Part shown: positions 1-24,339 of the stretch, in pieces | Position numbering within the stretch: the stretch's first letter is position 1 | Layout: every line of letters begins with the position of its first letter | NCBI GenBank assembly: GCA_045837725.1 | Contig: JBEWZL010000221.1 | Span: 1-64,000, forward strand | Length of the DNA stretch: 64,000 nucleotides | Reading direction: 5' to 3' | DNA from: Vermamoeba vermiformis | Taxonomy: Eukaryota | Made by a program: the position numbers and the translations under genes | The notes under the pieces: generated by a model | Told to the model about the DNA's origin: nothing | Seen by the model: the letters and a program-made list of their open reading frames with translations, nothing else | Databases searched by the model: none

Positions 1-22
1 TAACCCTAACCCTCAACCCTAA
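1..22 (+). repeat. Telomeric repeat (CCCTAA)n at the chromosome end
   Basis: The window begins taaccctaaccctcaaccctaa, with one variant unit; this is the C-rich strand of a TTAGGG telomere. Confidence 0.9.
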
Positions 23-131
23 TGTCACATACATTGGCCATGGGTGGCGGCTGATTTGTACAAATGTTTGATTGGCCTCTGTGGCTGACTTGCCTCACAC
101 CCAACCGCAGCCCCACCAGCCCTAACCCTAA
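23..131 (+). repeat. Telomere-associated sequence ending in an internal CCCTAACCCTAA
   Basis: C-rich degenerate tract (cacacccaaccgcagccccaccagc) followed by ccctaaccctaa at 120-131. Confidence 0.6.
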
Positions 132-3100
132 AGGGTATATAATCAACGTATTTAAAATACAGGTCATTTAAGCTCAACAAGTGAAAACCACGACCTGCAG
201 CTGCGATCAACAACTTTGAACTCAGCAGCACTGACTTCTTAAGTGCTTTGTATTCGGGAGATGGAGCCCGATCGGAGAAATCAAGTTTCGTATAATGGTA
301 GAGGAGATGGCCCAACAATTCTTTCTTTGTCCACTTGTCACTTTCTAGCTTGCGCTCGGCCATGTCCTCGACAGTTCGAGATATCAACATGTAAATGAAT
401 GAGCCATCAACAGGATGTGGCAATGGTCTGCCATTGGCAACATTGTTAAGCTCCAATACTGCAGACTCGTAAGGCAAAGAGAAACGAGTGAGAACAAACT
501 TCTGCGAGATGCGGTGTTTAAGAACCAGTGATCTCGTTCCCATTGTTGGAATCCATTTCAATCCTACTTGGTGTAGCAGGATTACCATTTGTCGGGTAAT
601 GTCCTTGGCTGTGATGGAGTCTTGAACAGGCACAAGATCTTCGTTGCCTTTGCGGAACCTGGCAAAGTTGAACCACCTCAAGGTCCTGCATAGATGAAGC
701 AGTAAGCATCGATGCAAACAATTAATTTGATATACTTCAAACTTACGAATTAATGCTAGGTAGAGATCCAACTGCATGTTTCCATAAATCGATGAAGTCT
801 GTTTCTTGAATGGTCTCCTTGATAGAGGCCAAGTTTGCCGGGAACAATGCAAGCAAAAGGTCAAGTCCATGGGCACCAGCTGAATTGGTCTCAAAGTCTT
901 CAAGGGGACGGATCGAGCAGAGGGATTCAAAAAGTCTTGAGTGCTTGCTAGCAGGAACGTGCATGTGCGTGAAAAGAGTTTTGAAGAGCATAGAAAGCAA
1001 GTTTGAAGCAATGACCATTGACTTGCTCAGGTACAAGGGCTGGATGAGACTAGATCGGCCAACGAAAAACAGTGCTGCTGCTTTTGAGTAGTTGATGGCA
1101 ACATCCATTGCTTGCTCGTATAAATCACTACCAAATGAGCGATAAAACACGCGTCGAGTGAGGGCAAGGGATTGCGAGACCTGCTGATCTTCTTCATCAC
1201 TTGGATCGACACCAACATTTGCTAAGTTAACAAATGTTCGCAAAGGATTCTCGTGATCGAATGTGAATACGCTAACTGGCAAGTGTATGCGATTGAACTT
1301 GCTGATGTTCTCAATCACACCAAGATGCGAGATCAAAGCGGGATTGCGTAGAGTTGGTATAGATCCACTCCATACCAATTGTTGCAACTAATACAAGGTG
1401 TCAGATAATTAATTTGAGTTATTATAGTACTTACGTCCTCCAGTAGTGCCAGGGCATTGACACAATCAACTTGAAATCGATTGTCTTTCGCTAAATCCAA
1501 TTTTCAGTTAGCAAATAAAATTAAACTTAAACCTTGACGTACCGTTAACTAGTCTATCGAATAGTGATCTATATGTTTTGTTCAATAGCCTTGCTTGATA
1601 AGACACCAGTGAGACCAACGACGGAGTACTGATCACTTGGATCGGGCTGAAGCGGATTGTTTCCAACGGAATCTTTGCCTCTGAGTATAGAGTCGATAAT
1701 GCACAGTGCGTTGCTATGCAGTCACGACCCAATTCCCGAAGGGCTTCAAAGGCACACACGAGTTCATATTTGCCCAAGTTGACGAACGAGACTTCCAACC
1801 GAGCACCGTAAGAGCTACCTTGCAGCACAGACAGAACATGTTCAATTCTGTCTTTCTCTGCCGCTGATGACGTGCATTTGTGTCGAATTGCTTCAGCTCT
1901 ACGTAAATGTTAGAATTCTGTTGGTATAATTAATGCGTCATGTTGATACTTACTTGTTAATGATTGATTGCCGAACTTTATTAGATATTGTCGAGCCAAT
2001 AGTGAGGTCTGAATACGGGAGAACAGCTATAATAAATTGTCAGCGATTTTGCAAAGTCAGTTTAAAGCACATACCTGCCACGTAGCTTCCAGCATCAAAA
2101 GGAGCATCATGGCGCCAGAACTCACATCCCGAGAAGTAGCCCTTGACCTCGCAGACGGAATGCTTCATAGAAGTAAAATGGACCATTACGCTTTGAGCTT
2201 GGCCAATGCCCAGGTTCGGGTAAAACTGGATGCTTGGCTTCGGATCTTTTTCAATCTTGGCCTCTTTACATCGGTCATTCGGGACTTGCAAGTGTCTGAT
2301 AGGAGACAGGCGTGAATTTGCTAATGTTGCCAGCCAATTAGGAGAAAACATAACCGTAAATTGATTTCGTCGATGGTGCGTGGGACTAAAAAATTAATTA
2401 ATATAGATAGCATTAGCTTAATTCTGTATTCATACCTTATTACCAATGCCAAGTCTTGAATAAATACGGTGTTCGCAAACAATTCATTTTTTTCGTTGCA
2501 GATCTCAGCCACGTTAAAAGTGCTCTCAACGTGATCAAGGTATGCGCGTATATCGTTATCGTTGGAAATTATGTCCTTGTTTCCAAAATATTGGAACGAG
2601 AAGATAACCTGAACTCTGTAAAATCAATTAGATTCGGAAAAATTTATGACATTGCAATATAAGAACTTACTGCTTGTTAGCAAAGGCAAATTGCTTTGCT
2701 TGTCTTTCGATATAATCAAATGAAGAGGGTGTTATCGTAGCTCTGACATCTTTAGATCGTGGATCTTCTAAAAACTTTGATAAATTTTGCTGTAAGCCAA
2801 CACGGCCAGCCTGAGCTGATTCCTTGATGCCTAAATTAAGAAAATTAACTATCGAATATAAATATTTAATTGATTTAATTACCTTTTAATAACACATCTC
2901 GATAAAAAGCGTAAATTAATTGGCTACGCTGCTTGCTAGTGTAGTTGAATTGCGGGAAACAGGCATAAATACGCCACTTCTGGTCGATGGTGCTGAATTG
3001 TTTTCATATTAGTGACAAATAAAATTAAATTGTTGACACGCACCCAATTTCCACATTCACTCGTGTGTGCAAGGCCACACCATGATACTTGTGCTTGATC

Positions 3101-3783
3101 TTTGACGAAAACAAGTGGTATTGAGGGGCCATGTGCACACGCATTGCTCGCATCAATACCCGAAGCGTATCTGAGTGAATGGCCGTGGCATCCATGTCCA
3201 GTTGTAGTTCAAAGTCGTGAACGCCCGTTGACGGGAATGCAGGAGTGAGAGATACGTATTTTTTTGAGTTGATCCACCTGGACCAGTGGTCTGTACCGTT
3301 GTCGATGTTCTCATCCAAAGGTGGAAGATCGCGCAAGTCTTCGTCAACGATCTCTTCGAGATTCTTCGTGTAAACGCTTCGAAGAACCTCCTCAGCTTGT
3401 ATGGCTTGTTTCAGGAGATTGGTGCGCCCCTCTGATAACGAGACGACACCAAAAATATTATCGGCCTCTGTAATACTAGAAAAATAGTTAGTATTGCTTT
3501 GTACTATCTAATTAACCAACGGAACTTACTGGTCTAATTCGCAGAGGAGCTTGTATCGTTCATTCGGCTCCATGGACATGAATAAGGACGCATCAAGTGC
3601 TGTCGTTTCAGTTCCGCAAAAAGAGATGTAATCTTCTGCAGAGAGGAGCGGCTCATTGATTGGTTCCTCTTCTTTCTTGACATCTGCTGTTTGAGTCTCG
3701 AATAACTCCGAGTCTTCGCCAGGATCTGGCACGACAACATAGTCATCTTCTTTAAAATCGGACAATGGCTCCAATCGTTGCAT
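25..3783 (-). CDS. Large multi-exon orphan protein of the terminal module; possible frame lesion near 2.7 kb
   Basis: ORFs 3526-3783, 3025-3336, 2321-2512, 2040-2351, 1508-1828, 743-1387 and 25-1011 join through short GT-AG introns. Motifs: LQLDMDA, LHTRVNVEIG, RIYACFP, FIQDLAL, KGYFSGCE, YGARLEV. I could not splice 2670-2760 cleanly in frame. Confidence 0.65.
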
Positions 3784-3852
3784 TCTAGAAATACAATTTA
3801 TTTAGTACACGAATTCCACACTGGGTGGAAATAAAATAAAACCGGATCGAGA

Positions 3853-5963
3853 TCAATGAAAAGTTTGTATCGAGTTTTTGCAAGGCCACGGAGTAAAATA
3901 ATTTTGGGGTAAATTCGTTGGAAACTCTCCAGATCGGATCATCATCCAATCGGTTTCCAAACGACCAAAGTCAGAGATTTGCTGCACAACGGTAGCAAAA
4001 GCCACATCCGTAAATAAGACTGCTGGAACCAGCTTGCAAAGGGCAACGAATGCCAAAACTTCGCTTTTAAATCTAAAATATTACTATTATTATCTTCGTA
4101 ACTCACATAGTGGTAGGTATTAATAACTTACCGACGGAAAACAGTTTTTCGATCCGCAACATTAGCTCCAAAATCCCTTGGAAACGCTCCTGATGCAAGC
4201 ATATTGCTATACGATGGCATTCCCTCGAGTTTGTTTAGCAGAGCTTCGTTTATAGATGCTTCCGAAACTTTGACAGACTTGGATTGAGACTGCTCAAAGT
4301 CCAGTTTGAGCTGTGCTTGTAGACTCTCGAGCACAGTACCAATGACGAATAATTGCGTGTTTTTTGCAATCTAAAAGCCACTTTTAGTAATGTGTTGCCG
4401 ACTGCCGTACAAATTCGAAGCAAACTTACCCTTAGATGTCTTCGTGTTTTGAGACCAATAGCACACGACTTCGAGCAGGCCTCAAATATATCATCTCGTG
4501 ATATACCGGTCAAGTCGTTGTTCCAGCACTTGACAAAATGTGACGGGATCAAGGTCATTGGACTATCAGGCACAGCGACAACAATATTGCTCAAGCTCTC
4601 TCCAGCTTGAATTTGAGCAGTGACTTTGTCGAACAAGTCACTATCAAAGTATCGCTTACTGAGAGTAAGCACGAGTGACGCAGATTTACCTAAATGGAGA
4701 TGGAATACAAGTTCGTTACTGATATTCAAATCTAATCAACTAACTTGACTTACTGTGGATTTTTGAGGCGGACAAATCTGGACTCTCTTCCGGCTCTGAC
4801 TCTGATTCACTGGATTTGGATTTAGAGTTCGATTTTGATTTCTTTGTCTTCTTCTTATCTTTCACGGTGGAATTGCTCTTTTTCTAAGTGAAATAATTTA
4901 CGTTAGTGATAATTGAATAATTATTATTTTAAATACAACGTACCGATTTATTCTGCTCTGCCTCCGAATCTGACTCGTCGGAGTCATCAACTTCAATAAT
5001 TGCTCTAATTACATGATTTTTCGGGTGAACTAGTTCATACAATTATTAGTATAATTTGGCAATAAATAACCGAATTAAATTACCTTTTTTAGATCCGATC
5101 TTGACACCAACCAGCTTGTTCTTTTTAATAATTAAGCGTGCCTTATTTTCCCCAAGGAACTTGACACACATCGAAATTCCTTGAGTGACAGACACTGTTT
5201 AAAACATTAGTGTCTGACACGATTGATTAAGCAATAGCATACCTTCTTCTATATTTTTAATTTCGTTGTCATCATTCTCTAATTTTTTGGTACGGAGTGG
5301 TAGTGGTGAGAGTGGTGGTTTTGGCTCTTCATCAACATTGACAGCTTGATCTGACTCGAGATCACTGACATTCGCGGAACCAAAATCCTCTTCTTCTTGC
5401 GAATCAGGAGGTGAAACTGATTGCAATCCGATAAGCTGGTAATACCATTAGCTGTGGTTGTGGTATGAAATTCAAATTTTTTTGTTTACCTTGAGTCGTT
5501 TCCGGGCCAGCTCTTGAGTCACTTCAATGCGTTTACGCTTTTCGCCAATGGACGAGCTTTCGTTGATTTTTTGCTGAATTTGGGCCACCTCCAAGCATTT
5601 TTCGAAGCAACCTTCCTTGTAGACAGGATTGTGGATGCGCGCATCGAGAAAAGCTTTGACGTCATCCCTATTAATAAAAGACTTACGCAGCACTCGAACA
5701 GCGTAGATAATACTTACGAAATAGCGAGTGGCTGCTGGATTCACTTTGTCAACAGCGAACTTTCTTGATTTTGCCCATTGGAGGACTCGTTTGATTGCCG
5801 ATTCTCTGTTGTCTTTCGAGTGTTTGGATAGATTGTCGAAAACATTCGACAAGCATCCAAGAAAAAGAGATAGATAATTGTAAAATTTCGGGCTTGATTC
5901 TCGATCCGGTATTATCACACACTCGCAAAGAATTTTCTTGTAATAGTTATCTAAATCGGACAT
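3853..5963 (-). CDS. Multi-exon orphan protein with acidic and Lys/Ser-rich middle
   Basis: ATG at 5963 (MSDLDNYY). Exons 5490-5963, 5243-5436, 4250-4729 part, 4128-4334 and 3853-4056 are linked by GT-AG introns; stop at 3853. Confidence 0.6.
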
Positions 5964-6376
5964 ACCGTGCGATACAATGCCGGGTTGACTTGTGGTTGTG
6001 GTTGGTATTGCGTGAAATAAATTGATTGATTACTAAAAGTCGTCGAGGCAGGTCTTTTATGTCTTTCTACGGGAATAACGGCTCTATTTAACGGTAACAA
6101 AGACCATGATTTTGCGCGGGAACAGGTCGTGGTGCTATGCGGAACGTCTGCACGGATTAAGGTTGAAGGCTGCACGAGCGAGGATCCGCCATCCGTCGCA
6201 ATGGCCAACTTTTGAATGAAAATCGAAACTATTCTCCTCCTGACACAATAGGTAATGTACAGTATGATACGAATCTAAGTATCAACATCATAATCCAAAA
6301 CAAGTCGAAACTGCATGACACGCAATATTAAATCAGATGGCGCCGTTTATTTAAATCTGATTTTGAAATACAAAGG

Positions 6377-7931
6377 ATGCCAGAAGACGGAGAAGTTCGT
6401 GCCTCTGGAAAGCTGCTGCATCAATGTACGACTCTGGGCTTGGAGTGCGTATTAATTTGATTCATTCAGGCGTTGGATGGCAATTGACCAGAGCTTTTAA
6501 AACATGCTACAGCAAATGGTGCGTCGAAGCTATGAATATTATGCAATCACAGTTGCCCTTGACGATAGCAGATGTAAGCAGAAAAAATAATTATTATTAT
6601 CGTAATTTTGTTCGCGTTATTTAATTTAGTAGGTCCAAACACAAGGCAAAGAACTGGCGTTAATATTTGGCAATCAATGTTGCTTATTATTTAACTTGGG
6701 GACTGGGGCTGCATTTCACGTGGGACGATCTGAAGAGAAAAACTCGAGCCCACTCGATTACAGAACGAATCTAGCTTTATCATGCTCAAACAGAATGACA
6801 ATCTTTATTGTAGATTGTCATAACACTCAAAATCAGGTGCGGTTGTGTTGGAGAGATAAAACTGCCCCGATCTGGACTGCCGGTCGTGGACCCGATCTGC
6901 TTGACATTGAAGAACAGCATATCATTAACCACGTCTCTGCCTACGTCGAAAATCAGCAGTATCAGAAGTATTTCGAGGTAACAATCGCCATCTGTTCGTT
7001 TTTTAAACTAATTAATTACAGAAAGCAACTCTAATCGAGTGCTTAATCAATCAAAGCTTATTTAATGGCATTGGTGCGTATACTTCTTCGGAAACTTGCT
7101 TTTGGTTGCTCGAGTTAAAAGGTACGATGCCATTTTTAGATCTTGTTCGGAGTAGAATCTTGTTTATTTATTTTTGCAGGAGTACGACCGTGGATTAATT
7201 TCAAAGCCTTCTGTCAGCAATCCGCCGATAATTTACGCATTTTGGTGCGTATTATTCGCGTCTATTTCCGCTTCATGGAAAAGTACATTTCAATACACGG
7301 TGCCCAATATACGTGCATTGATTTCAACGAATGGAAGTGGCAGAATTTTAGATCTGTGTTTTTGCGCTGCTATAGACAGCCAAGTACTCTCCTGAAGGGC
7401 CAACGGGTCAAGATCCAGAAATTCTCATTCGGCATCTCCAAAACGGGAAGTAATGGCATGAAGATAACTCGCTCAAAAGCTCAGTGTTTTACTCCCATCC
7501 TTAACGATGACGAAACACCGCCAACCAATTGGGAAGAAAAAAAAGTGAATCCGATCGGCAGAAACTCGTTGGGTGTAGGCTGGTTCAGCTGGTATGGCTC
7601 AACTGATCGCAGAATTACTCTCAATAGTCAGCGCAAAGATGTATGTATACGTTTCTAGTGAATACATTCATAATTTTTATTCGAGGCTATTCAACTTCGG
7701 CCTCCGACAAAAGATCTGCTTCTTAGAGCAAATACGCCAGAAGTACGACATGGCAACGATTTTGACGATGACATTGAGAGCGAAGAGGACTGTGAGCTAG
7801 AAGCAGAAGAGTTAGAACAGGAAAACTTTCAATTGCCTGCCGTAACTACAAAGAAAAGAGAATCACAGCGAATGCGAGTCGTTACTTGCCTAAACAAAGA
7901 AATGGCAGATATAGTTAAACAAATAAATTAA
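6377..7931 (+). CDS. Divergent Fpg/Nei family (NEIL1-like) DNA glycosylase/AP lyase
   Basis: The spliced product begins MPEDGEVR (catalytic Pro2-Glu3). It continues QGKELALIF..FNLGTG (cf. NEIL1 RGKELRL..FGMSG), IFIVD, WTAGRGPDLL (cf. WQPGRGPCVL), the H2TH motif LIECLINQSLFNGIGAYTSSE..GVRP (cf. ICEALLDQRFFNGIGNYLRAE) and FLRCY, then an acidic tail. Five short introns. Confidence 0.85.
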
Positions 7932-7936
7932 ATTTA

Positions 7937-9350
7937 TTAATTCGAATCCGTAACGGATCCAGACTCGTACCCCCACATTGACGGAGTACACTCATCATCA
8001 CGATTTGGACTCAAAACAATTGCAGTAAGCTCGCTTAGTCCACCATCAAGGTCGTGATGAGGTACAGGAGAGGTCTGTTTGAAACGTGAGAACCGGCTCT
8101 TTGTTGAACTTCGCTGAATTAATACGTCGTTTCGTAATACTGGAGTACTGTGTCGATCAATATCATCAACTTGAATATATTCTGCAGTGTCACGGCAGAG
8201 AATTTGCTCAAAAAATGCTCCTTTTTGATAGAGCATCTTTCCAATCTGCTTTCGCTTTTCAATGGCAAGGCGAACAGCTCTTTCAATATGATCCTCGATA
8301 TCAATAGAATCGATAGAATAGTCTTCCGAGACCCTTGGCCTTTCTTGGACCTGTAATCGAGATTCAGAACGATCTGCTGCGTAAAATTATCTGAAAGGAT
8401 TTACCTGAAATGATCCGCCACTGAATACTACATGAAAGTATTCATCCAATCGCGTTTCTACCAGAATTTTTCTGTCTTGAATTAATTTAATCGTGACTGA
8501 TCGAGTTTTCAGATCTCACCGCATTCTCTCGAGTTGTGCTCCTGGTCTTGTCTGTTTGGGCCGAGTACTCCTCAGTATTGAATTTAATATTGCGAGGTCG
8601 AACCAGTAGCCCTCACGGGTGCATTGGTTAATGTTAACTCGCAGATCGGAAATATTTATTTCTGTAATTATATCAGTACCGTAATACTAATTGTAAATAA
8701 ATTTGCTTACTTGAACTATGGTACTGTTCTTTGGCAAGTTGTTTGATTTTTGAAAGCCCGATCGACGTAAAGTTTGCAATTCCCAAAGGACTAAGCATCA
8801 GCCGGCGGGTGTCATTATGAAATAGAATTCGGTGTTCCTTAAAATATCTAAGATTCGTTAGGATTAGCTTGCACAAAATAATAACTTACGTGTAGTCCTG
8901 ATCGAGTGACATGTCAAACTGAATTTGCTTACTAAGTAAATTTTATAAGCTATTTTAACCACAATTGTTAATGTTGACTATCCATTAAGTCTAACGATGC
9001 ATCGACGTAACCGAACTCAAGCTACTAATCCGGAAGATCAACAAATTGATCAGAGATCACAAAAAGTTGCCAAACAAATTGAATTGCCTCAATGATAACG
9101 ATCTATGCATTGATCGTGCAGCATTTAGTCGCTTAGTTTAGTAAGTGGTAAAATTAAGCGCATTTTAGACCTGATCGACTCTAACAAAATATTTACAGTG
9201 AAATAACTAATTCAATTAAAGCGGACACCTACTGGAACGGTGATGCTCTATTTATTCTACATTTAATTTCCGAACAATTCCTTTCTGAGTTTTTTGAGCT
9301 TTGTCGGATGAAGGCCAAAACCGAAGATCGCGTTACTATCACCGCTGACA
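7937..9350 (-). CDS. Hypothetical multi-exon orphan gene, convergent with the Nei-like gene; start uncertain
   Basis: ORF pieces 7937-8236, 8119-8304 and 8673-8876, with minus-strand splice signals (ttac/ctcac on +). Its stop is 5 bp from the Nei-like stop. Confidence 0.4.
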
Positions 9351-9885
9351 ATTTAAAATCGTTTATCAACACTCAAAATAGCAATCCGATATAATTTTGT
9401 AAGCCCAAGTTGTTATTCTTGCTCAATAAATCACTCGAGCAATTTCTAACTGTCGTTAATTGAATCGCGCCTGGATACCACAATTAACGTAGCATAGACC
9501 TTCCTATTTTTCGAGATTTTAGAATATATCATTAGCCAATCCTCCGTGCAGAGGTGTCAAACGTGACACCTGAGGACTTCGCGCATCTAGAATCTTAAGC
9601 CTGCAATAATTCTTACTTAAGTGTAAATTTACTGTAAGTAAATTTATCTTTTAAATGGCGGATGGATCGTTTTCAATCCAATCCAGAAAGTCTCCAACCG
9701 AGTTGGCCGTACTCATTGTTTGGACTCGTCCAAATAATCACTTATATTGAAAATTATTGAATCGTATTAGTACGATATTCTCTTTTAATTTAAATGCAGT
9801 TATTACTTGATTCGCAGATTTGTAACTCGATTTTACTGTTATTTATTAAGAGATGTAGCCGAGTGTCAATGACGCGACGATGCTA

Positions 9886-10063
9886 AGAGGGTCGCCAATG
9901 ACCCGTTGGCAGAGTTACACATGACATTTTGCATACTTTCTGCTGGCGTGATCGCGACACATCTGCAGCTATTTTCGGCTGGGCTAGAGGAGAGGGTCGC
10001 CAAGGACCCGTCTAATAGCTCAAAGAGCTCTAAGTCTTGCGGAGAGGGTCGCCAATGACCCGT
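9886..10063. repeat. Three copies of the 21-bp palindromic repeat AGAGGGTCGCCAAKGACCCGT
   Basis: Copies at 9886, 9991 and 10043 with a GGGTC-N6-GACCC inverted core; the spacers are unrelated to each other. Confidence 0.9.
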
Positions 10064-11592
10064 CTGCGTGACTGTGGGCTCCATAGCCAGATGCAACGGA
10101 TGCTGTCGTGCTTCCACAACAGAGCATTTAAACTCCATTTTTACAATATTTATTATTGTCAATTATCGATTATCTGCACTTTGAACTAAATATAAGAATT
10201 AAAGCCAAAGAAACGGTTTTAATTAATTGGAGAATTTATTTCGGATCGTGTGTTTGTCACAGGCCTGTTCGTGCCCTTTACCGTCCAATGTCTGGACGGT
10301 GTAATTACAATCGCAAAGCAATGGTCTCGTAAAGGTCTCACCTACGAGCGCGCTTCGTTTGGAACCTTGCTTCACGCCAGATGACAGGAGTGAGAGCTGT
10401 GCCGAATCAGATAATCCGAATCACGGAGTTGTCTCGTGCTTGAGAGACAGATTGGGCACCATTAATTGTAATTATAAAGTAAAGAAAAACACCTGTGGTC
10501 GAATGAACAAATAATGCGTAAAACTTGACCGTTGCGAGCATCGGTGTGGTTATTCAGTGAAAATTCGGGAAACGAAATCTCCGCAAGATCCTCTCGGTTT
10601 GATTTTGTTGCAACGGTCAACAAGAAGAGCTCACGAGAAATATCGAGGTGTTAAAACTATGGCACAGATGCACGCACCGATGCAGTCATTCCTCCCGGGT
10701 ACCTTCGCTAGATTACTCGGAACGAGATACGAACTTGACAGATTGACTTCGTAAGATCTTAGCGTGGCCACTACCACTGATGGTTTCTCAATTGGCAATT
10801 TGTACTCGCGCACAAAGGTTAGTTGCTTGTGCAGAATACACCACAGCTCTACAAGTTGATGGCGAATTGAATTGAAATCGAATCCGTTCTTGGTCTCAAA
10901 ATGGTTAGTAATTTATTTAATAAATTAGCACATATCATTTCAAGATTCACGTGAATCACGAACCAATTAATGCTGTCATTATAAATTTATTTCACTTAGT
11001 TAATATTCGATAGATTTGCAAGTTTGCCGTGAGAGCTCATGGAACTGGAGCACGTAAGTACTGCAACTGTGTTATATGTGTTCGTGTACATTTGCCTAAA
11101 CTCTTAATTCAGGTTGGTGAGCTTTGATATCGAACATTTGATGGACGTGGACGAGTCTGCTCAGCAAGCCCTGAAGTGCCTCACCGCAGCCAGCAAATAG
11201 TGCGAAAGTTTTGAACCTCACTGTCTGTGTATCGAGCTCACAGAGGAGTGCTACCCACTTGTGCTAAGGTTGTTCAAGCTCGCAATCATCTCGTGTTGGT
11301 ACCGTCTCGAAGGAGAACTCACGGACTTATGGTACTCGACTCACCACATCCCGCAAATGTACTGCAACGGGTGTGCAATCTTGTGTTCATGGAGCACGCA
11401 TGCGTGCCACTAAAACTGCTCTCCATCGACAAGCTCTTCTGCGTTGCGATCCGCAGGTTATTATTATTAAGTCTGTCCAAATTTGTAATTTGTAATTCCC
11501 TATTAAATAACTTAAATATGTTTAGTCGTGTCACTACAGATTTACTATCAGGTTGAATATTTTTTTTTATTTAGACGAAAGTTCATTTCTTA

Positions 11593-12189
11593 ACAGATCG
11601 ACCACAAGGGTCGAATTATTGATTATTTATTGATTATTAGCACCTGTTAGTGACGCGCCACGACGTCAACGTCGTTTCAGCGCGAGGTATTTCGGATTAG
11701 TCAAATTTGCACGTGTCAATTTTGAAAGTATTTTTAAAACCGAAGACAGATCGACCACAAGGGTCGATTTATTTATTTGTTGGTATTACAACGTTGTAAT
11801 TACAGCTGACAGTAACGCGCTGCGGCATCTGAGCCGTTCCAGCGCGAGTTATTTCGGATCAGAGCTGATGCGAAAATGGCGCACGGGCTATTTCGCATCA
11901 GTAATTCAACAGAACGACCACAAAGGTCGTTATATTTATTTATTATTGTTAATGAACAACAGATAGTTACGCGCCACGGCCACAACGGCCGTTCAGCGCG
12001 AGTTATTTCGAGGATTGGCAGTCGCGAACTTGGATTCGCAACAGGTCGGCCACAAGGGTCGATTTGTTTATTTAGATAGCTTATTGTTTATTAACACACA
12101 CGCGCCAAACGACAATCAGCGTCGTTCCAGCGCGAGACTCAGCGCACGATCTCAGTAGTCATGCGAATCTCGGTGCAGTGACCGAGATT
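11593..12189. ncRNA. Four-unit array of structured multi-hairpin elements (candidate ncRNA or ssDNA structure)
   Basis: Units start at 11593, 11746, 11909 and 12041. Each has ACAGR-TCGACC-ACAAG-GGTCGA-like hairpin A, an AT-rich linker, ACGCGC-[variable hairpin]-CAGCGCGAG (hairpin B), TATTTCG in three units, and a third variable hairpin. The stems covary. Confidence 0.6.
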
Positions 12190-12689
12190 ATTCAAGGTAA
12201 TAATGTTCCATTAATACTACCAATTAAGTATTCGTAAATCATTAAATATAAATCATTTTTCCGTAGCATTATTTTAATTCGTAATCAATTTTAAATTCGA
12301 ATGTTTAAATCCAAATCTTTGCTTAATTATGGTTTTTATTTAAATTACAATATACTGACATATTATTTATCAATACAGAAACATATAATAATATTGATTT
12401 GCCGATCAAATCGCCTTGATTATTTGTAAAAGAACGAGAACTGCAATCACGTAAGAGTTATTAATCTGTTCGTTTTATTATATATATGGCACTAATTTAG
12501 TTAGCATACAATTCTTTGAGATCTGTGGCGTATTCCAGCTCGTAAGTCATAATTTACTATACAGCACTAATTAATAGAATTCATAGCACTCAAAATGACA
12601 GTGATCACGTTCATGCATTAAGTCGGCTCGTAAGTATTTTTAATGGTACGAATTTGTTTTACGGCCAATATTAGTTGCTATGGCTCGCA

Positions 12690-13903
12690 TTGGACGGACC
12701 CTCTGTGCCGTGCCTTCAACGTCCTCTTCTTCACAACACCTGCGTGACTTGCACTGTCCAAGACTTGGACGCTTGGTGTTGCGTGGCTCGCACCTCCCGG
12801 TTATTGGTGCTATCCTCTACACCGTGCCATCAGCGTGCCACCGTCCAGTTATTGGACGGTCCCCTCAGTGCATGGCTCGTACCGTCCAGTTATCGGACGG
12901 TCCTTCAGTGCATGGCTCGCACCGTCCAGTTATTGGACGGTCCCCTCAGTGCGTGGTTCTCACCGTCCAGTTATTGGACGGTCCTTCAGTGCGTGGCTCG
13001 TACCGTCCAGTTATTGGACGGTCCTCTCTGCATGATCAAGATGCATTTGAGCTCGCCCCGAACGACCGCAACGGTAAGTATTTTTAATGGTACGGATTTG
13101 TATTAACAGCCAATAGTAGTTGTTGTGCCTTGCATTGTCCAGCCGTTGGGCGGACCCTCTGCGCCGTGCCTTCAACGTGACACCGTCCAGTTATCGGACG
13201 GTCCCTCAGTGCGTGGCTCGCACCGTCCAGTTATTGGACGGTCCCTTCTGTGATGTGCCTTCAACGTGACACCGTCCAGTTATTGGACGGTCTCCTCAGT
13301 GTGGCTTGCACTATTCTCGCACCTGTCCAAGACTTGGACGCTTCATTGTGCGTAGCTCGCACCGTCCAGACTCTGGACGCTTCACCTCACACTGGCTGAG
13401 AGTAAGTCCAATTTAATTTACAATTAAGCAGGCAACAATCTGACTGTTCTCTTTAGGACCAAAGTATGCAGGTGTCAGCAACGCTGTCCAAATTCTGGAC
13501 GCTTGGTTGCCTCTGCGTGGTTCGTTGCAAACCGCTAAGTGTTGCACATTTCTCGGGCTTGGCTTGCACGATCCAGTTATTGGACGGTCCCTTCTGTGGC
13601 ACGCCTTCAACATGACACCGTCCAGTTATTGGACGGTCTCCTCAGTGTGGCTCGCACCAAGTCTTGGACTTGTTATTGGTGCAGTGCTCGTGCTGTCCAC
13701 GGTTCACTCTGTACTGTGCCTTTAGTGCAACCGTCCAGTTATTGGACGGACCCTGAAGCTGGACGCTTGGCTGGTACCAAGTGGCTCTGTGTGGCTCACA
13801 GCATACCGTTCGAGTATTGAACACTTTTGAGCTGCATGGCTTGCGCATGCAGAGTCTGTGGACGCTTCTCTTGTTGGCTGTCTGCCTGTCCAAGTCTTGG
13901 ATG
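12690..13903. repeat. Palindromic minisatellite ACCGTCCA-GTTAT-TGGACGGT (40-41-bp unit, with higher-order duplication)
   Basis: Full cores at 12841, 12882, 12922, 12963, 13003, 13183, 13223, 13272, 13618 and 13731, a partial core at 13572, and GTCCA-N5-TGGAC/T variants at 12756, 13325, 13364, 13486 and 13888. Confidence 0.95.
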
Positions 13904-14028
13904 TTTGCCTTGGTAATTACTCATGCCTGCTTGTGGCCTGTCTTGTACCTTGTACCACCCTGTACACCCTTTGTACTTTTAAATTAAAAGTTTATTTTTT
14001 ATAAACAGCTAGTGCACTGAGGTTGCGG

Positions 14029-14045
14029 CCTAGCCCCAACCCTAA
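14029..14045 (+). repeat. Degenerate interstitial telomeric remnant
   Basis: cctagccccaaccctaa reads as three degenerate CCCTAA units, in the same orientation as the terminal telomere and just after the repeat zone. Confidence 0.45.
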
Positions 14046-14280
14046 TCTTTATAAAGTGAAAGAGATCAGCAAGGTCATTTCATGCAACCCTATTAGTATC
14101 TCAAGTTGTTTATACTGGTATCCTTTGCTTATTATTAACTTCATACACAACTTACTAACTTGTATTCCAGCTGTAAAACATCTGTACTGTAAAAATAAAA
14201 AGTGTATAACTTCTAAATTTTTCTGGATTTTGTCAAAGGGCATGGGGCATGTCCATTTTTTTCCAGGTATATGTGAACTC

Positions 14281-15857
14281 ATGCACGCCAATCCAATGCA
14301 GCAAGTTTGAGTTCAATAGCTTGCCTAGTAACAAAGTTATAGCAGCAGTTGTAAAGCATTTATTAGAGCAGCAGGATAAGGCATATATGTACGTAGCTAT
14401 GCCAAACCATATATTCTTATAAACCGTTCAATATTAGGCTCAAATAACGGCTGATCAGTGTCTCACTGCATATCGCCAAAACCCGAAATGGAAAGGCGGT
14501 GAACCGCACCTTGAGTGGATTAAAACACTAAAGATCAAAGGGACATTCACGGAACAGCAATACAAGAACGCTGCCAGGCACGTAAGTTTAAATTCTTGGA
14601 ATCTAGATCGACTACTCATCATTCTATTGCTTCAGGTAGCAGCCACATGGAGGCGTTACCGTAATAGCAACAAGACAGTCATCATTCAAGCCACTTACAG
14701 CGATATATGGGGTACTGATGAGTTTCCTGTTGCAATAACGGATCGAAATCTGGAGCCGTTTTTCAACTCCGAGTCTGGTGCTGCTCAGCTCCAACGCTGG
14801 ATCCTAAAGAAGCTAATGAAGATTAGCGACAGTAATTTGAGCATAACGACACCGCCGGCTCTTTACGTAGCGTGGATCAGGCAAAAATTCATCAAACTAC
14901 GCAGTGAGTCCAAAACGGTTATTAGCAATACTTTATTAATATATGATAGGGTGATTCAAGGACCAAAAGGAGATGTATGCTGAATTGCGACTGAAGATGA
15001 AGGAGCTAGAAGGGCAACACGCCGAACAAGAGCTGCTGCGGGATTTCAAGGGATCTTTGGAAAAAGAAGAAGAGGAAAGAGTACCGAACAACAACAATGG
15101 TAAGAAGAGTCCCAAGGCTGGCAAAAGAAAACGAGACTTGGTCAACAAGAAGATCCGAGATGAACTTGACGAAGAGGAAGATCTTACGCCCAAGAAGTCG
15201 ACATCGCGAAAGAAGGCAAAGTCTACAAAGGCGAAAGAAGGCCAGTCTCCTGAAAAGCCACTGAAGACAAGCAAGAAGAAAACAAAGAAATCTACAAAGA
15301 CGACAGAAGACGCGCCTCTCCTTGTTCAACTACCCGGATCCGACAAGTCAGTGACTTCAACAACCGAGAAGCCCACTGACGAAGCAGCGCCTGTTAAGAA
15401 AACCATCAACAAGCCCAAAGCTGTGCCGCCTCAAAAAGCGAAGCCCGTGGCAATGAAAAATCAGGACAACAACCACGACTTGGACTTTACTTTTGCGTTC
15501 TCGATGCCTTCATCGCCAAAGGTCAACAAAAGAACCAAGAAACAAGCGGAAGAGAAGGAGAAGAGGGGTGTAGAAGAGAACGTGGAGCCTCAGGCGATGG
15601 CTCGAGCGACAAGATCCCAGAGTGCGACCGTTACAAGCAACGATAAATCCAAAAAGAGTAAGTATTAATAATAATGTACATATTTTATTATTATTCTAAC
15701 ACTATTTTATCGAGGAACTGCTCGCGATGCCAGCTTGAGCGAATCTACTTCAAACACACAAAAGAAAAAACAGAAATCGGTAAATCCTTCATAAACCGTT
15801 ATTTTATTTCATATTATTAATTCTATTACTTTTACACTATAGACCTCTCCGTAGTTG
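14281..15857 (+). CDS. Hypothetical multi-exon protein with a long Lys/Glu-rich low-complexity C-terminus; both ends uncertain
   Basis: Exons near 14438-14581, 14636-14903 and 14950-15656 with GT-AG introns; ORF 14973-15668. Confidence 0.55.
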
Positions 15858-15879
15858 CCATCGTGGTACTCTAGTGTTG

Positions 15880-18800
15880 TTGGTTTGGGAGAAGGAACAA
15901 GATCAAGACATTCAGTGCATCTTAATTGAAATTTCATTCAATTTGTGCCTGAGACTAGTCCACAGATAGTCAAAGACAAAGCCCACAAGGTGCTTGAGGC
16001 AAAATTTAAAGCGAACAAAGGTGTCATGGCAGTCAGACTAGCATTGGCACTTGGGTTTTGCAAGTTGTATGTGTCAGGAAGATATGTAGACCTAGAAATT
16101 CTTGGGCACTTAATGATGAAGGCCATAGTGGATGTGTTTGAATCAGCAGAGCCAATTAAACATCTTTTAAATTGCTTTTTTAAGAGGAAAGCTTCTTTTC
16201 TCTCTGAATTCTGACAACAATAGTTTCACAGCAAAGATTTTCAGCTCAGTTTTCAACCTGGCCTTTAAACAAGTGCTGCAGTTGGTGATCAACAATGGGG
16301 AGCCTATTCAATTACTCCTATTGTTCTACGCTGAATTGATCGTCAATCCATTGCAAAAAAGTGATGTTTGTATGTTTGCAATACAACAATTGGCCTCTGC
16401 AGGTATTAAACAGCACCATAAATCATTTATATTAACGTTAATTGTGGTCCAGGTGGGCTCAATAAAAACTCCATCGGAACCATTAAAAATTTACTTTGGT
16501 TGGCACCAAATAAAACAGAGGTTGCTCAACGGTGTGAAAACTTACTTGGCAAACAGCACAAACAAGTCAAGCTCCATTATACAAAGTTAATTAAATTTCT
16601 CACAGAATCAAAATCGCAAACACAAGTTAACTCACGAAAATAAGAGTCTGTTAATCAGGCACAATTTGGAATCAAAAGATGCTTGTCATTACAAAAAAAC
16701 AGAAAACACAAAATAAATAAGTTTAAGTTGCATCTACCTTTCCTCGCTCTGACTTTGCCCCCACTTTGCAGTCTCACTGAATATTGTTGCACTATGCTGA
16801 CTCAAAGAGGACATTCTCATTTTTCTTCTTTTGTAAGTGCTTATTTAACATACATACGTCAATAATATAACTGTAGAATCATATTATCCTGGGTTCCATT
16901 TTCTGGTCCAAACATTTTAAATACTAAGCGATGTTTACTAGAATGCAAGCCAATAAGGCTTTCTATACACTGAATAATTGCATGTTTTGACAAATAGAAT
17001 GATAAAATAATCCTTTTTAACTATTAAAAAGTACATACATCCAACATTACTTTTCCTTCTTTTTTCTGGCAGCATTCCCAAACTCTTTTCCCAGCAAAAC
17101 AGTTTATATAATTCATTTGAAATATATTGTACATGGTTACTGATATTGGGTAACGGAAAATCAGAAATAAAAATTTGGGCAACCAGCAAATGCCCAGAAA
17201 ACAACAGTGCAAAGCAACTTAAAAGAGGGCATCAGCCCCAAATACTTTTCCACCATGAACACAACAAAACAAGGGGATCATGGCTCCCATCATCTGTAGA
17301 GCTATGGCACCAACCATTTGCAGCAAAACAAAAAGAAGTTCCTCTCCAATTGGTAGAGTCCTTCCAAGAGCTCCTCTCTGGAACTCACTGGCTTGCTCAT
17401 GATAGTTAGAAATGTAGTTTGGCAAAATTGCGTTGTTACAGTCAAACAGTAAAGTTTTATTGTGGTTTGAGGCCACATGCTTGCCGATAATTATGTCCAT
17501 ACCACTTTCTCAGATAGTTGCTAATGATAGTGCAGCCACCTCTAAGAAGTGACCCAATCCCTTCGATTACTCAGTACTTGCCAGCTACAGAAATGGATGA
17601 AAATGAAATCAATATGCACACCTTGATATGGCTTTGCCCCACATTACATGAGTTCTTGCTGCAGCAACAGGTAAAATCCTGTTGGGAAGACTCCATCCCC
17701 ATTTGGCCAAAAGTCTTAGTTACAAAGGTAGAAATTCAGTGGTGGGATAACACTAACTTGTATTTAACTCGGGTGAAGCTGACTTCATTTACACTAACTT
17801 CAAAAGAGATAAATAGACTGAGTGTTCAGTGATTAACTCTTGTTAAGCTAATTAAAAAAGTACGTCATAATTGTCCCCACTGTGTGCATCAATTTGTAGC
17901 ATAGAAATTTGTATGACCTATCACCCAAGAGCTTACAACTAGCATGACCTTGAAGTACTTGACACCTAAACTTTTCACAGTGTGTGTGCATATCTCGAAG
18001 TATCCCAAATTCCGGCAATATTAGGCAACAAATAGATAGAGATAGGAGGCGGCAGATTAACTTCAGCAGAGCAACGGAAAGCCAAGATGCTGCTTGTATC
18101 ATCCTCGACTGCACCCTGTAGCTTTCCAGTCCTTGACTGGTGACAGTCTAACTGTCAAACAATCTAATCTTGGAAAAAAAAAGAGACATCAGTTGTATTA
18201 ATTTGTACTTTATTGATAATAAAAGATCAAGATCAACCAAAAAACATTCCTTCATAATTATTTGCCAATAGAAAAAACGTTGATTCATTTGATTCTATGG
18301 CTGATTCTTCTTGAGATCCTCAGGAACAAAGTAAGTAGATTCTGTATAATTAATATATTATTAACTAACTAATTGTAATCAGAACTCACTCATTTTTGGC
18401 AGAGTGGTGATTGAGAGATCTGTTGGTTTGTCCAACACATTCTTCTCCATGAGAAGAACTCACACTTCCAATCTCTTTCATTGCTCATTGCAGGCCTTCA
18501 TTCCATCTTCTAGCTGCAACAACTTCTCAAACAGCTTGAAAACCTTTCACTAGGTTCGCAGGTAACCTCAACATAAAAGTCTGCTCCTGTTCCATCATGG
18601 TGTCCACAGCAGTGCAGCAAGCCTTCATGATGAGTGGCAGCAAGTGATCGTTGCCTGTTATGATGTATCCTTGGGACTGTGTCAGAAAGGCCAGTTCCTT
18701 TATCATTTTTTCCTTGCCGGAGATCACAGTGGTGGCCCTGTCGTCGACACAGATCCAAGCAGGAATCGAGAGAGCCAAGAACTAGGCTCTCAATCTCTTG

Positions 18801-19030
18801 GCAAGAGTCTCGAATGCTTCCCAACCCATGAAAGGTAAGTCAGTTTTAATCGAATAATCGTCAGGCTTACCTGTTCTGTCCTCTCACAGCAGAGCATTTG
18901 GTAGACAGATTTCATGTCAAAGACACACCAAAAAAGCCTCACATTGTCCTTATCAAACCTAACCCTTAGCTGGTACATTGAGCGAAGTACCTTGAAAACT
19001 ACCGAACTACTGAAGTTTTTCATCATGCAA
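15880..19030. pseudogene. CpG-depleted decayed coding or transposon-like relic(s), identity unknown
   Basis: Only broken ORFs (e.g. 18790-19026 and 18527-18778, interrupted by stops and frameshifts); CG dinucleotides are scarce and TG/CA abundant. Confidence 0.35.
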
Positions 19031-19350
19031 TTTGTTTTATAAGCCGTTAGGTAAGCTTTTTACAATAAAAACTTTAATACTGCAAAAATAATCATTATTT
19101 TCTTACTTTAAAGAGCTTTTCGTAGGCCTATACCAAAAATATTTTATAGTAGTGATACTCTATAATAAAATATACTAATAACTCACACCATTAGCATCAT
19201 GTCATCATAAATGCCCTCGTTGGTGAGATCGATAGGATTATTCCTAAAGTACAACACATAAGATTTGACAAAGTATTTTTTAAAACTAAAGACTCATGGA
19301 TCTTGCCATATCTTCACAAAAGTGAGAAGGTTTTGTTTGTGCACCCAGTT

Positions 19351-24339
<4,989 letters not shown>

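Follow-up and report, generated by a model that had tools for sequence, protein, structure and literature searches.

The window analysed here, the first 64 kb of contig C221 in a 43-Mb assembly of 309 contigs, starts with telomeric TAACCC repeats (positions 1–19), the same repeat that forms long arrays at other contig ends. Directly behind this cap lies a fragment (20–143, plus strand) of another, short repeat family, its truncated right end, which ends in CCCTAACCCTAAAGGGTATATAAT and is joined onto a large element. The short family has 12 genome matches at 96–100%; in 11 of the 12 the junction falls at one and the same base, with unrelated sequence beyond it, and some copies have varied left cut points and telomeric repeat caps. 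The large element, a left-truncated subtelomeric unit that we call the terminal module, occupies 144–14,055, its right boundary being inferred. It is colinear with a truncated unit on contig C258 (C258:12060–19940; 67% over 2.4 kb) and with metagenome contigs L095–L098 (~66%), which are near-identical to each other and thus count as one independent organism. This colinearity indicates that the module is conserved in another organism.

At the left of the module, a large ORF of about 1,600 amino acids with 19 predicted introns (148–5,963, minus strand; splice model and alignment) is cut near its 3′ end. It carries the motifs DxDA, QxFGxK, (Q)DxA, PNLG, KxY and GxRxE and has 33 exon-level matches in the genome, mostly near contig ends. 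The exons tested gave no informative match in Pfam, PHROGs, PDB profile, Atlas or word-index searches. A Rep_trans identity was tried and rejected, as PF02486 had 0 genome matches and hhalign gave 0.2%, no better than reversed or shuffled controls. The NEIL1-like gene that is our subject follows on the plus strand (6,377–7,931), and beyond it come a convergent gene of about 236 amino acids and unassigned function (7,937–8,798, minus strand; conserved in C258 and L096) and a histone-fold coding exon (9,185–9,391, plus strand; Pfam PF00125, E 4e-6; H3-like by inspection) with homologues on five other contigs and L096.

The rest of the module is repetitive: three 30-nt repeats (9,879–10,065; repeat scan), four repeats spaced by ~150 bp (11,587–12,136; also on C258, C260 and C190, often inverted) and a palindromic array of 13 copies with 8-bp arms around a 5-nt spacer (12,690–13,753), similar arrays being present in C258 and L096/L097. 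This last array precedes the inferred right end (14,029–14,055, plus strand), where a TATA-like motif comes after CCCTAA, an end motif found in C258 and C226 as well; the evidence for this end is at motif level, and blastn against the other loci did not recover it. A junction like that of the short repeat family behind the cap, with CCCTAACCCTAA, lies within the large ORF of L096 and L097. The few mapped RNA reads, at 11,745–12,196, match the ~150-bp repeats in part and carry on into different sequence, which shows that related repeats are transcribed at some locus. To the right of the module, positions 14,056–19,300 are CpG-poor (observed/expected (o/e) 0.55, falling to 0.26 at 16–18 kb), hold unexplained ORFs and a telomere-like motif near 18,958, and matched none of the other fetched loci at the nucleotide level; this stretch is possibly an older, methylated unit. 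In other units, SET-domain genes were found (L069:1951–2529 and L071:7628–8212, Pfam E 1.5e-16 both; C258:3738–4500), preceded by a CxxC..W segment that we take to resemble a GATA-type finger. Two further ORFs, at L057:6050–7348 (C205) and L073:1166–1777 (C190), are presumably tyrosine recombinase-like to judge by their motifs, and have no Pfam match.

As an earlier note on this DNA had proposed, the NEIL1-like gene is split by five introns (6,426–6,469, 6,574–6,632, 6,978–7,021, 7,122–7,179 and 7,641–7,685; all GT..AG, 44–59 nt), four of which shift the frame. Spliced by coordinates, it runs from an ATG at 6,377 to a stop ending at 7,931 and encodes 434 amino acids with no internal stop. The AT fraction is 0.67–0.78 in four of the introns versus 0.57 in the exons, and 0.57 in intron 1. 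Exons 1 (6,377–6,425; Met1-Pro2-Glu3 and Glu6) and 2 (6,470–6,573) are each supported by the splice model, by paralogues and by a metagenome homologue. Exon 3 (6,633–6,977; splice model and profile) holds GKE, LGTGA, DCHNT and GRGP, and exon 4 (7,022–7,121; splice model and PDB search) the start of the H2TH domain with FNGIGAY. The remainder of H2TH, FLRCYR, the zincless-finger region and a family-specific LGVG..W block fall in exon 5 (7,180–7,640), while exon 6 (7,686–7,931; splice model and comparison with L096) encodes an acidic and then basic tail and the stop. The motifs on which the earlier note had relied are all present in the spliced protein: P2-E3, G56-K57-E58 with the GK lysine, L73-G-T-G-A77, G135-R-G-P138, F180-NGIGAY186 and, in the C-terminal part, S329-LGVGWFSWYG339 and an acidic stretch at about 378–399, the acidic tail being common only to the closest relatives. 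That note had also listed the lack of a zinc finger among the changes; CxxC is indeed absent, which is no sign of divergence, as a zincless finger is the normal state of NEIL1.

Several homologues have introns at the same positions. The paralogues on C205 and C244 carry one at all five places (phases 1,0,0,1,0), the C149 paralogue has the first four, a 5′-truncated C258 copy has the last four, and the homologue on metagenome contig L096 carries all five. Over 429 codons compared with the L096 homologue, the window protein shows 62% identity; pN is 0.26 against a saturated pS of 0.77, so purifying selection acts on the reading frame. The comparison with the C258b copy gives pN 0.16 and pS 0.77. 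On this sequence evidence the gene is real, intact and intron-split. Of three RNA runs labelled as the same species, none placed reads on it or on the host-gene bin at 19,344–20,000, which makes them uninformative on expression.

The window gene is predicted to encode a NEIL1-fold protein of a subfamily that is invisible to Pfam and lacks annotation. Neither four of its exons nor the full-length relatives P0033, P0037, P0020 and P0011 had an Fpg/Nei match in Pfam, and a word-index search with exon 3 gave no matches. Exon 4 matched only NEIL1 entries in the PDB (E about 0.9). A profile built from five rows of exon 3(+4) pieces (A3) matched human NEIL1 in the PDB at 5e-8, with nothing else below 0.4, and retrieved 119 proteins among 1.84 billion representatives. 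The top proteins are unnamed pieces, mostly exon-sized, together with several intronless full-length relatives, and none of the 10 looked up has an informative name. With a 19-row family profile (A4), matches were 1.6e-18 for NEIL1, 5e-6 for plant Fpg, about 1e-5 for the viral Fpg-annotated entries 3a42/3a45 and 0.045 for E. coli Nei. Giant-virus and phage Fpg/Nei proteins (for example, MvNei1 and BFVD matches) share the fold on a non-host replicon but match more weakly than NEIL1, and the window gene differs from them in having spliceosomal introns. A search for relatives in viral contigs gave 42 pattern matches, none of them confirmed.

The fold was modelled on the intronless relative P0033, which is 24% identical to the window protein, rather than on the spliced window protein itself. 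The AlphaFold model (pLDDT 88) aligns with NEIL1 residues 2–290 at Z 23.3 and rmsd 2.7 over 259 residues, against ~20.5 for Fpg entries. A two-strand hairpin at 272–288, as expected of a zincless finger, lies within the NEIL1-aligned range; the LGVG..W block lies outside this core, is modelled at pLDDT 80–89 and is common to most full-length relatives. A model of exon 4+5 of the C43 paralogue (7 rows) reached pLDDT 48 and was set aside. Look-alikes of P0033 in the ESM Atlas form three clusters of Basidiomycota hypothetical proteins at score 0.95, a lead that comes without an alignment.

Human NEIL1 is the best profile and fold match, and with it the window protein shares P2, E3, E6, the GKE lysine (Lys57), GRGP, the H2TH domain and the missing zinc finger. 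In Fpg/Nei chemistry, Pro2 attacks C1′ of the flipped nucleotide with help from Glu3 and Lys57, and the backbone is nicked. Six full-length copies in the genome that start MPE, and L096, keep P2, E3 and E6/D6; the GKE lysine is kept in these same proteins and in many intronless relatives. Judged by these residues, the window protein is likely to be catalytically active. It differs from NEIL1 in how it would probe DNA. The void-filling triad Met81/Arg118/Phe120, as given in the accessible part of the source (bioRxiv 2020.02.28.970129), aligns with T75, H114 and T116, and N176 aligns with A185. With all four residues replaced, the substrate probably differs from that of NEIL1. The family also has a longer hairpin region and the extra conserved W..LGVG..W block past the core. 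For the zincless-finger arginine, Arg277, the equivalent would be K299 or A300, depending on register; the site is Lys or Arg in most intronless relatives. Loss of N176 together with the uncertain Arg277 equivalent may impair lyase activity. The protein resembles NEIL1 in fold and probably in chemistry, yet does not qualify as a NEIL1 orthologue.

The host's own repair genes lie elsewhere. Searching for H2TH brought up a plant/fungal-type Fpg on C294 and a canonical NEIL1-like gene at C258:31541. The window gene is therefore not the genome's only NEIL1 candidate; had it been, this would have spoken against the earlier note's proposal of an element-encoded paralogue. In a quick maximum-likelihood tree (98 rows, midpoint root, proteins under 215 amino acids left out), a single 23-row branch (SH-aLRT 100, stem 0.95) unites nine copies from elements with 14 relatives from databases and excludes the host NEIL1-like gene. 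Unlike canonical NEIL1, the window family is multi-copy and element-borne as well as on a separate branch. That long stem, together with 23 other family loci near contig ends, supports the proposal well, and we regard it as very probable that the window gene is an element-borne NEIL1-fold paralogue. The host gene itself seems, in a splice model, to continue into further domains (C258:31541–~34900; L015), a possible NEIL1–UNG fusion; the segments after its NEIL1-like part are presumably a WGR-like and a uracil-DNA glycosylase domain, named from their motifs. The third H2TH find is a separate intronless NEIL1-like ORF within a 7.07-kb repeat (L016:1–7064 on C70, also on C66, C112, C119, C173 and C234; 99–100% identical, partial on C119) that also encodes a DUF7869 protein. 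Four database relatives of this ORF are 67–70% identical, two of them on ~7.1-kb contigs. This repeat represents a second, independent capture of the NEIL1 fold.

Searches and local tblastn place at least 24 family loci in the genome. Each of the 24 is no more than about 12 kb from a contig end, a zone that makes up at most about 17% of the assembly (618 ends × 12 kb/43 Mb). Of these loci, 22 face away from the end closest to them; the two that do not are on contigs under 27 kb. End proximity is partly an assembly effect, because repeats break assemblies; telomeric repeats at the near end were seen for four copies only, on three contigs (C221, C205 and two on C258). The copies are 25–62% identical. 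Five are cut at the 5′ side, three by a junction with another unit's end and two by the contig end, and one of the latter, on C93, also has a CGA-to-TGA stop. A weak 19-residue match, L100, showed no similarity to the elements and was dropped, and at a sub-cut-off match on C204 in the Neil1-DNA_bind search no NEIL1 gene was evident. Within the units, the glycosylase is accessory cargo, given that it lies beside only 3 of the 15 large ORFs compared.

Nine of the last 12 loci to be added were fetched, and most lack Pro2 and the LGVG block and sit in short units followed by tandem repeats. Under crude splice models, on which this Pro2-less subgroup rests, the paralogues on C220, C219, C86, the C260 end and C238 begin MLE and that on C78 begins MAE. 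Short units of this kind, with a Pro2-less NEIL1-like gene and tandem repeats behind it, lie on C220, C219, C86, the C260 end, C238, C264, C76, C78 and C117 (L201–L209) and on C130. The subgroup is possibly non-catalytic, and its existence implies that the family can persist without canonical catalysis.

The explanation that we find on balance probable, taken as a whole, is that the window gene encodes an element-borne NEIL1-fold glycosylase/AP-lyase with a target other than that of NEIL1. The gene would be carried as cargo by giant subtelomeric elements that stack head-to-tail at chromosome ends. Pro2, Glu3 and Lys57, being conserved, would still perform Schiff-base excision and strand nicking; replacement of the duplex-probing residues and addition of a structured C-terminal block suggest that a different target is recognized. 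As the favoured target we put forward, tentatively and at less than even odds, cytosine derivatives, modified or deaminated, in the DNA of the element itself. Excision would protect the element from methylation-linked silencing and decay, alongside the histone-fold and SET-domain cargo.

The earlier note had raised the countering of host DNA modification, and the circumstantial context of that idea holds: C5-methyltransferase matches lie on 4 contigs of the host, CpG o/e is about 1.1 in the host versus 0.13–0.6 in parts of some arrays, and SET and histone-fold cargo are present. The direct CpG comparison, however, failed to bear it out: o/e over the large-ORF span was not higher with the gene (0.98, 0.38 and 0.70) than without it (0.27–1.17; P = 0.82, 3 versus 12 loci). 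The 7-kb transposon with the different NEIL1-like ORF is itself CpG-poor (0.42). Tet_JBP, also part of the favourable context, has 20 genome matches (for example, C260:32788 and C77:118072), of which several lie close to the ends of contigs and one belongs to the terminal array of C260; none was seen inside a unit carrying this glycosylase. Left of the module on L095, positions 2,090–2,700 contain what we take from its motif to be a TET/JBP-like fragment, the piece tested having no match in Pfam, between DDE transposase pieces.

A rather unlikely alternative, though the strongest, is a NEIL2/NEIL3-like repair enzyme for oxidized bases and AP sites in single-stranded, bubble and telomeric DNA, protecting exposed element ends or intermediates. 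Replacement of all three triad residues while P2, E3 and K57 are kept fits such an enzyme, as does the position of the gene next to telomeres. Set against this, the host owns both an Fpg and a gene of NEIL1 type, which leaves no evident need for additional repair; the R118/F120 loop is substituted rather than shortened; and some intronless relatives keep both R and F (DCRxF in P0050 and P0024).

Whether the carrier is mobile at all also has to be weighed. Retained introns, the lack of an identified transposase or reverse transcriptase (RT) and the very divergent copies would suit a family of subtelomeric host genes that ectopic recombination or break-induced replication has dispersed. We consider this improbable given the precise right end shared by 11 of 12 junctions to unrelated sequences, the head-to-tail stacking, the telomere caps at varied truncation points, the same junction type in another organism (L096/L097) and the near-identical units with abrupt ends on different contigs, some pairs of which could be allelic.

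Element-borne carriage, as we prefer it, has close parallels. Terminons, the Athena-RT giant retroelements of bdelloid rotifers, are in the accessible text on them likewise large, multi-gene, 5′-truncated, telomere-capped and arranged in head-to-tail arrays, with a short reverse-complement telomeric stretch at the fixed end (PMC6431247). They differ from the units here, which have genes on both strands, no detected RT or hammerhead core, and NEIL1-like, histone-fold and SET cargo; a glycosylase has 0 occurrences in the Terminon cargo list in that text (PMC6431247). The carrier can be called Terminon-like. Fungal DNA transposons that carry TET/JBP genes, proposed in the portion of the source available to counter 5mC silencing, are also mobile elements with a base-modifying enzyme, but the enzyme here has a glycosylase rather than a dioxygenase fold, and neither DDE transposase nor terminal inverted repeats were seen in the unit (PMC12730594). 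Bacterial telomeric transposons, as far as the consulted part of their description goes, share one defined end with the telomere as the other boundary, but their machinery consists of a DDE/Tn7-like transposase plus a protelomerase or terminal proteins (bioRxiv 2024.11.13.623437), no part of which was detected here. The literature searched, mostly outside subscription journals, contained no description of Fpg/Nei cargo in eukaryotic transposons or of this element.

How the element moves bears on a further reading, in which the glycosylase nicks target or donor DNA and so makes the break for unit joining or telomere seeding. None of the 57 RVT_1 matches in the genome falls in the window unit, which is truncated, and an RT motif scan of the fetched contig ends found only an inserted gypsy RT; the element's RT may be intron-split or lost. 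An Rfam scan of window positions 1–20,000 found no hammerhead ribozyme, and a simple pattern for a CTGANGA..GAAA core with stem found none in the fetched ends. Four of the 57 RVT_1 matches were inspected and are presumably DIRS-like by their motifs; separately, L210–L213 form a family of 540–590-amino-acid RT/RNase H ORFs of DIRS-like appearance. The failure to find an RT motif or hammerhead core, one fixed unit end with variable truncation and the recurrence of the glycosylase in several unrelated unit types would accord with such a role. The scarcity of the gene beside large ORFs, with none at 11 further contig ends fetched for that ORF, weakens an obligatory form of the strand-cleavage function that had been suggested, while leaving room for action in trans; several copies also lack Pro2. 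A mobilization role is quite improbable. Equally improbable is a catalytically weak or dead DNA- or chromatin-binding protein derived from NEIL1, for which the MLE and MAE starts of the crudely modelled paralogues and the several lost DNA-contact residues of the window protein speak, and against which stand P2, E3, E6/D6 and the GKE lysine in six MPE copies and L096.

So far, Fpg/Nei enzymes have been known from repair, whether encoded by hosts or by viruses; the family described here suggests that mobile elements carry base-removal enzymes of their own. A broader reading, which we offer as somewhat doubtful, is that these units are an undescribed class of giant telomere-attaching eukaryotic elements that move without an RT or DDE transposase of their own, in which the conserved 1,600–1,900-amino-acid ORF would be a new mobilization enzyme, the histone-fold, SET and NEIL1-fold glycosylase genes would form an anti-silencing toolkit with the glycosylase retargeted to methylated or oxidized cytosine, and relatives would occur in environmental eukaryotes and possibly in basidiomycetes. 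That a Pfam-invisible NEIL1-fold subfamily has been amplified on telomeric elements and is under selection there points to a use of base excision in element–host conflict or in end processing. The subfamily is a source of readily assayed candidates for new base specificity, and its gene marks a Terminon-like element family without a recognizable mobilization enzyme.
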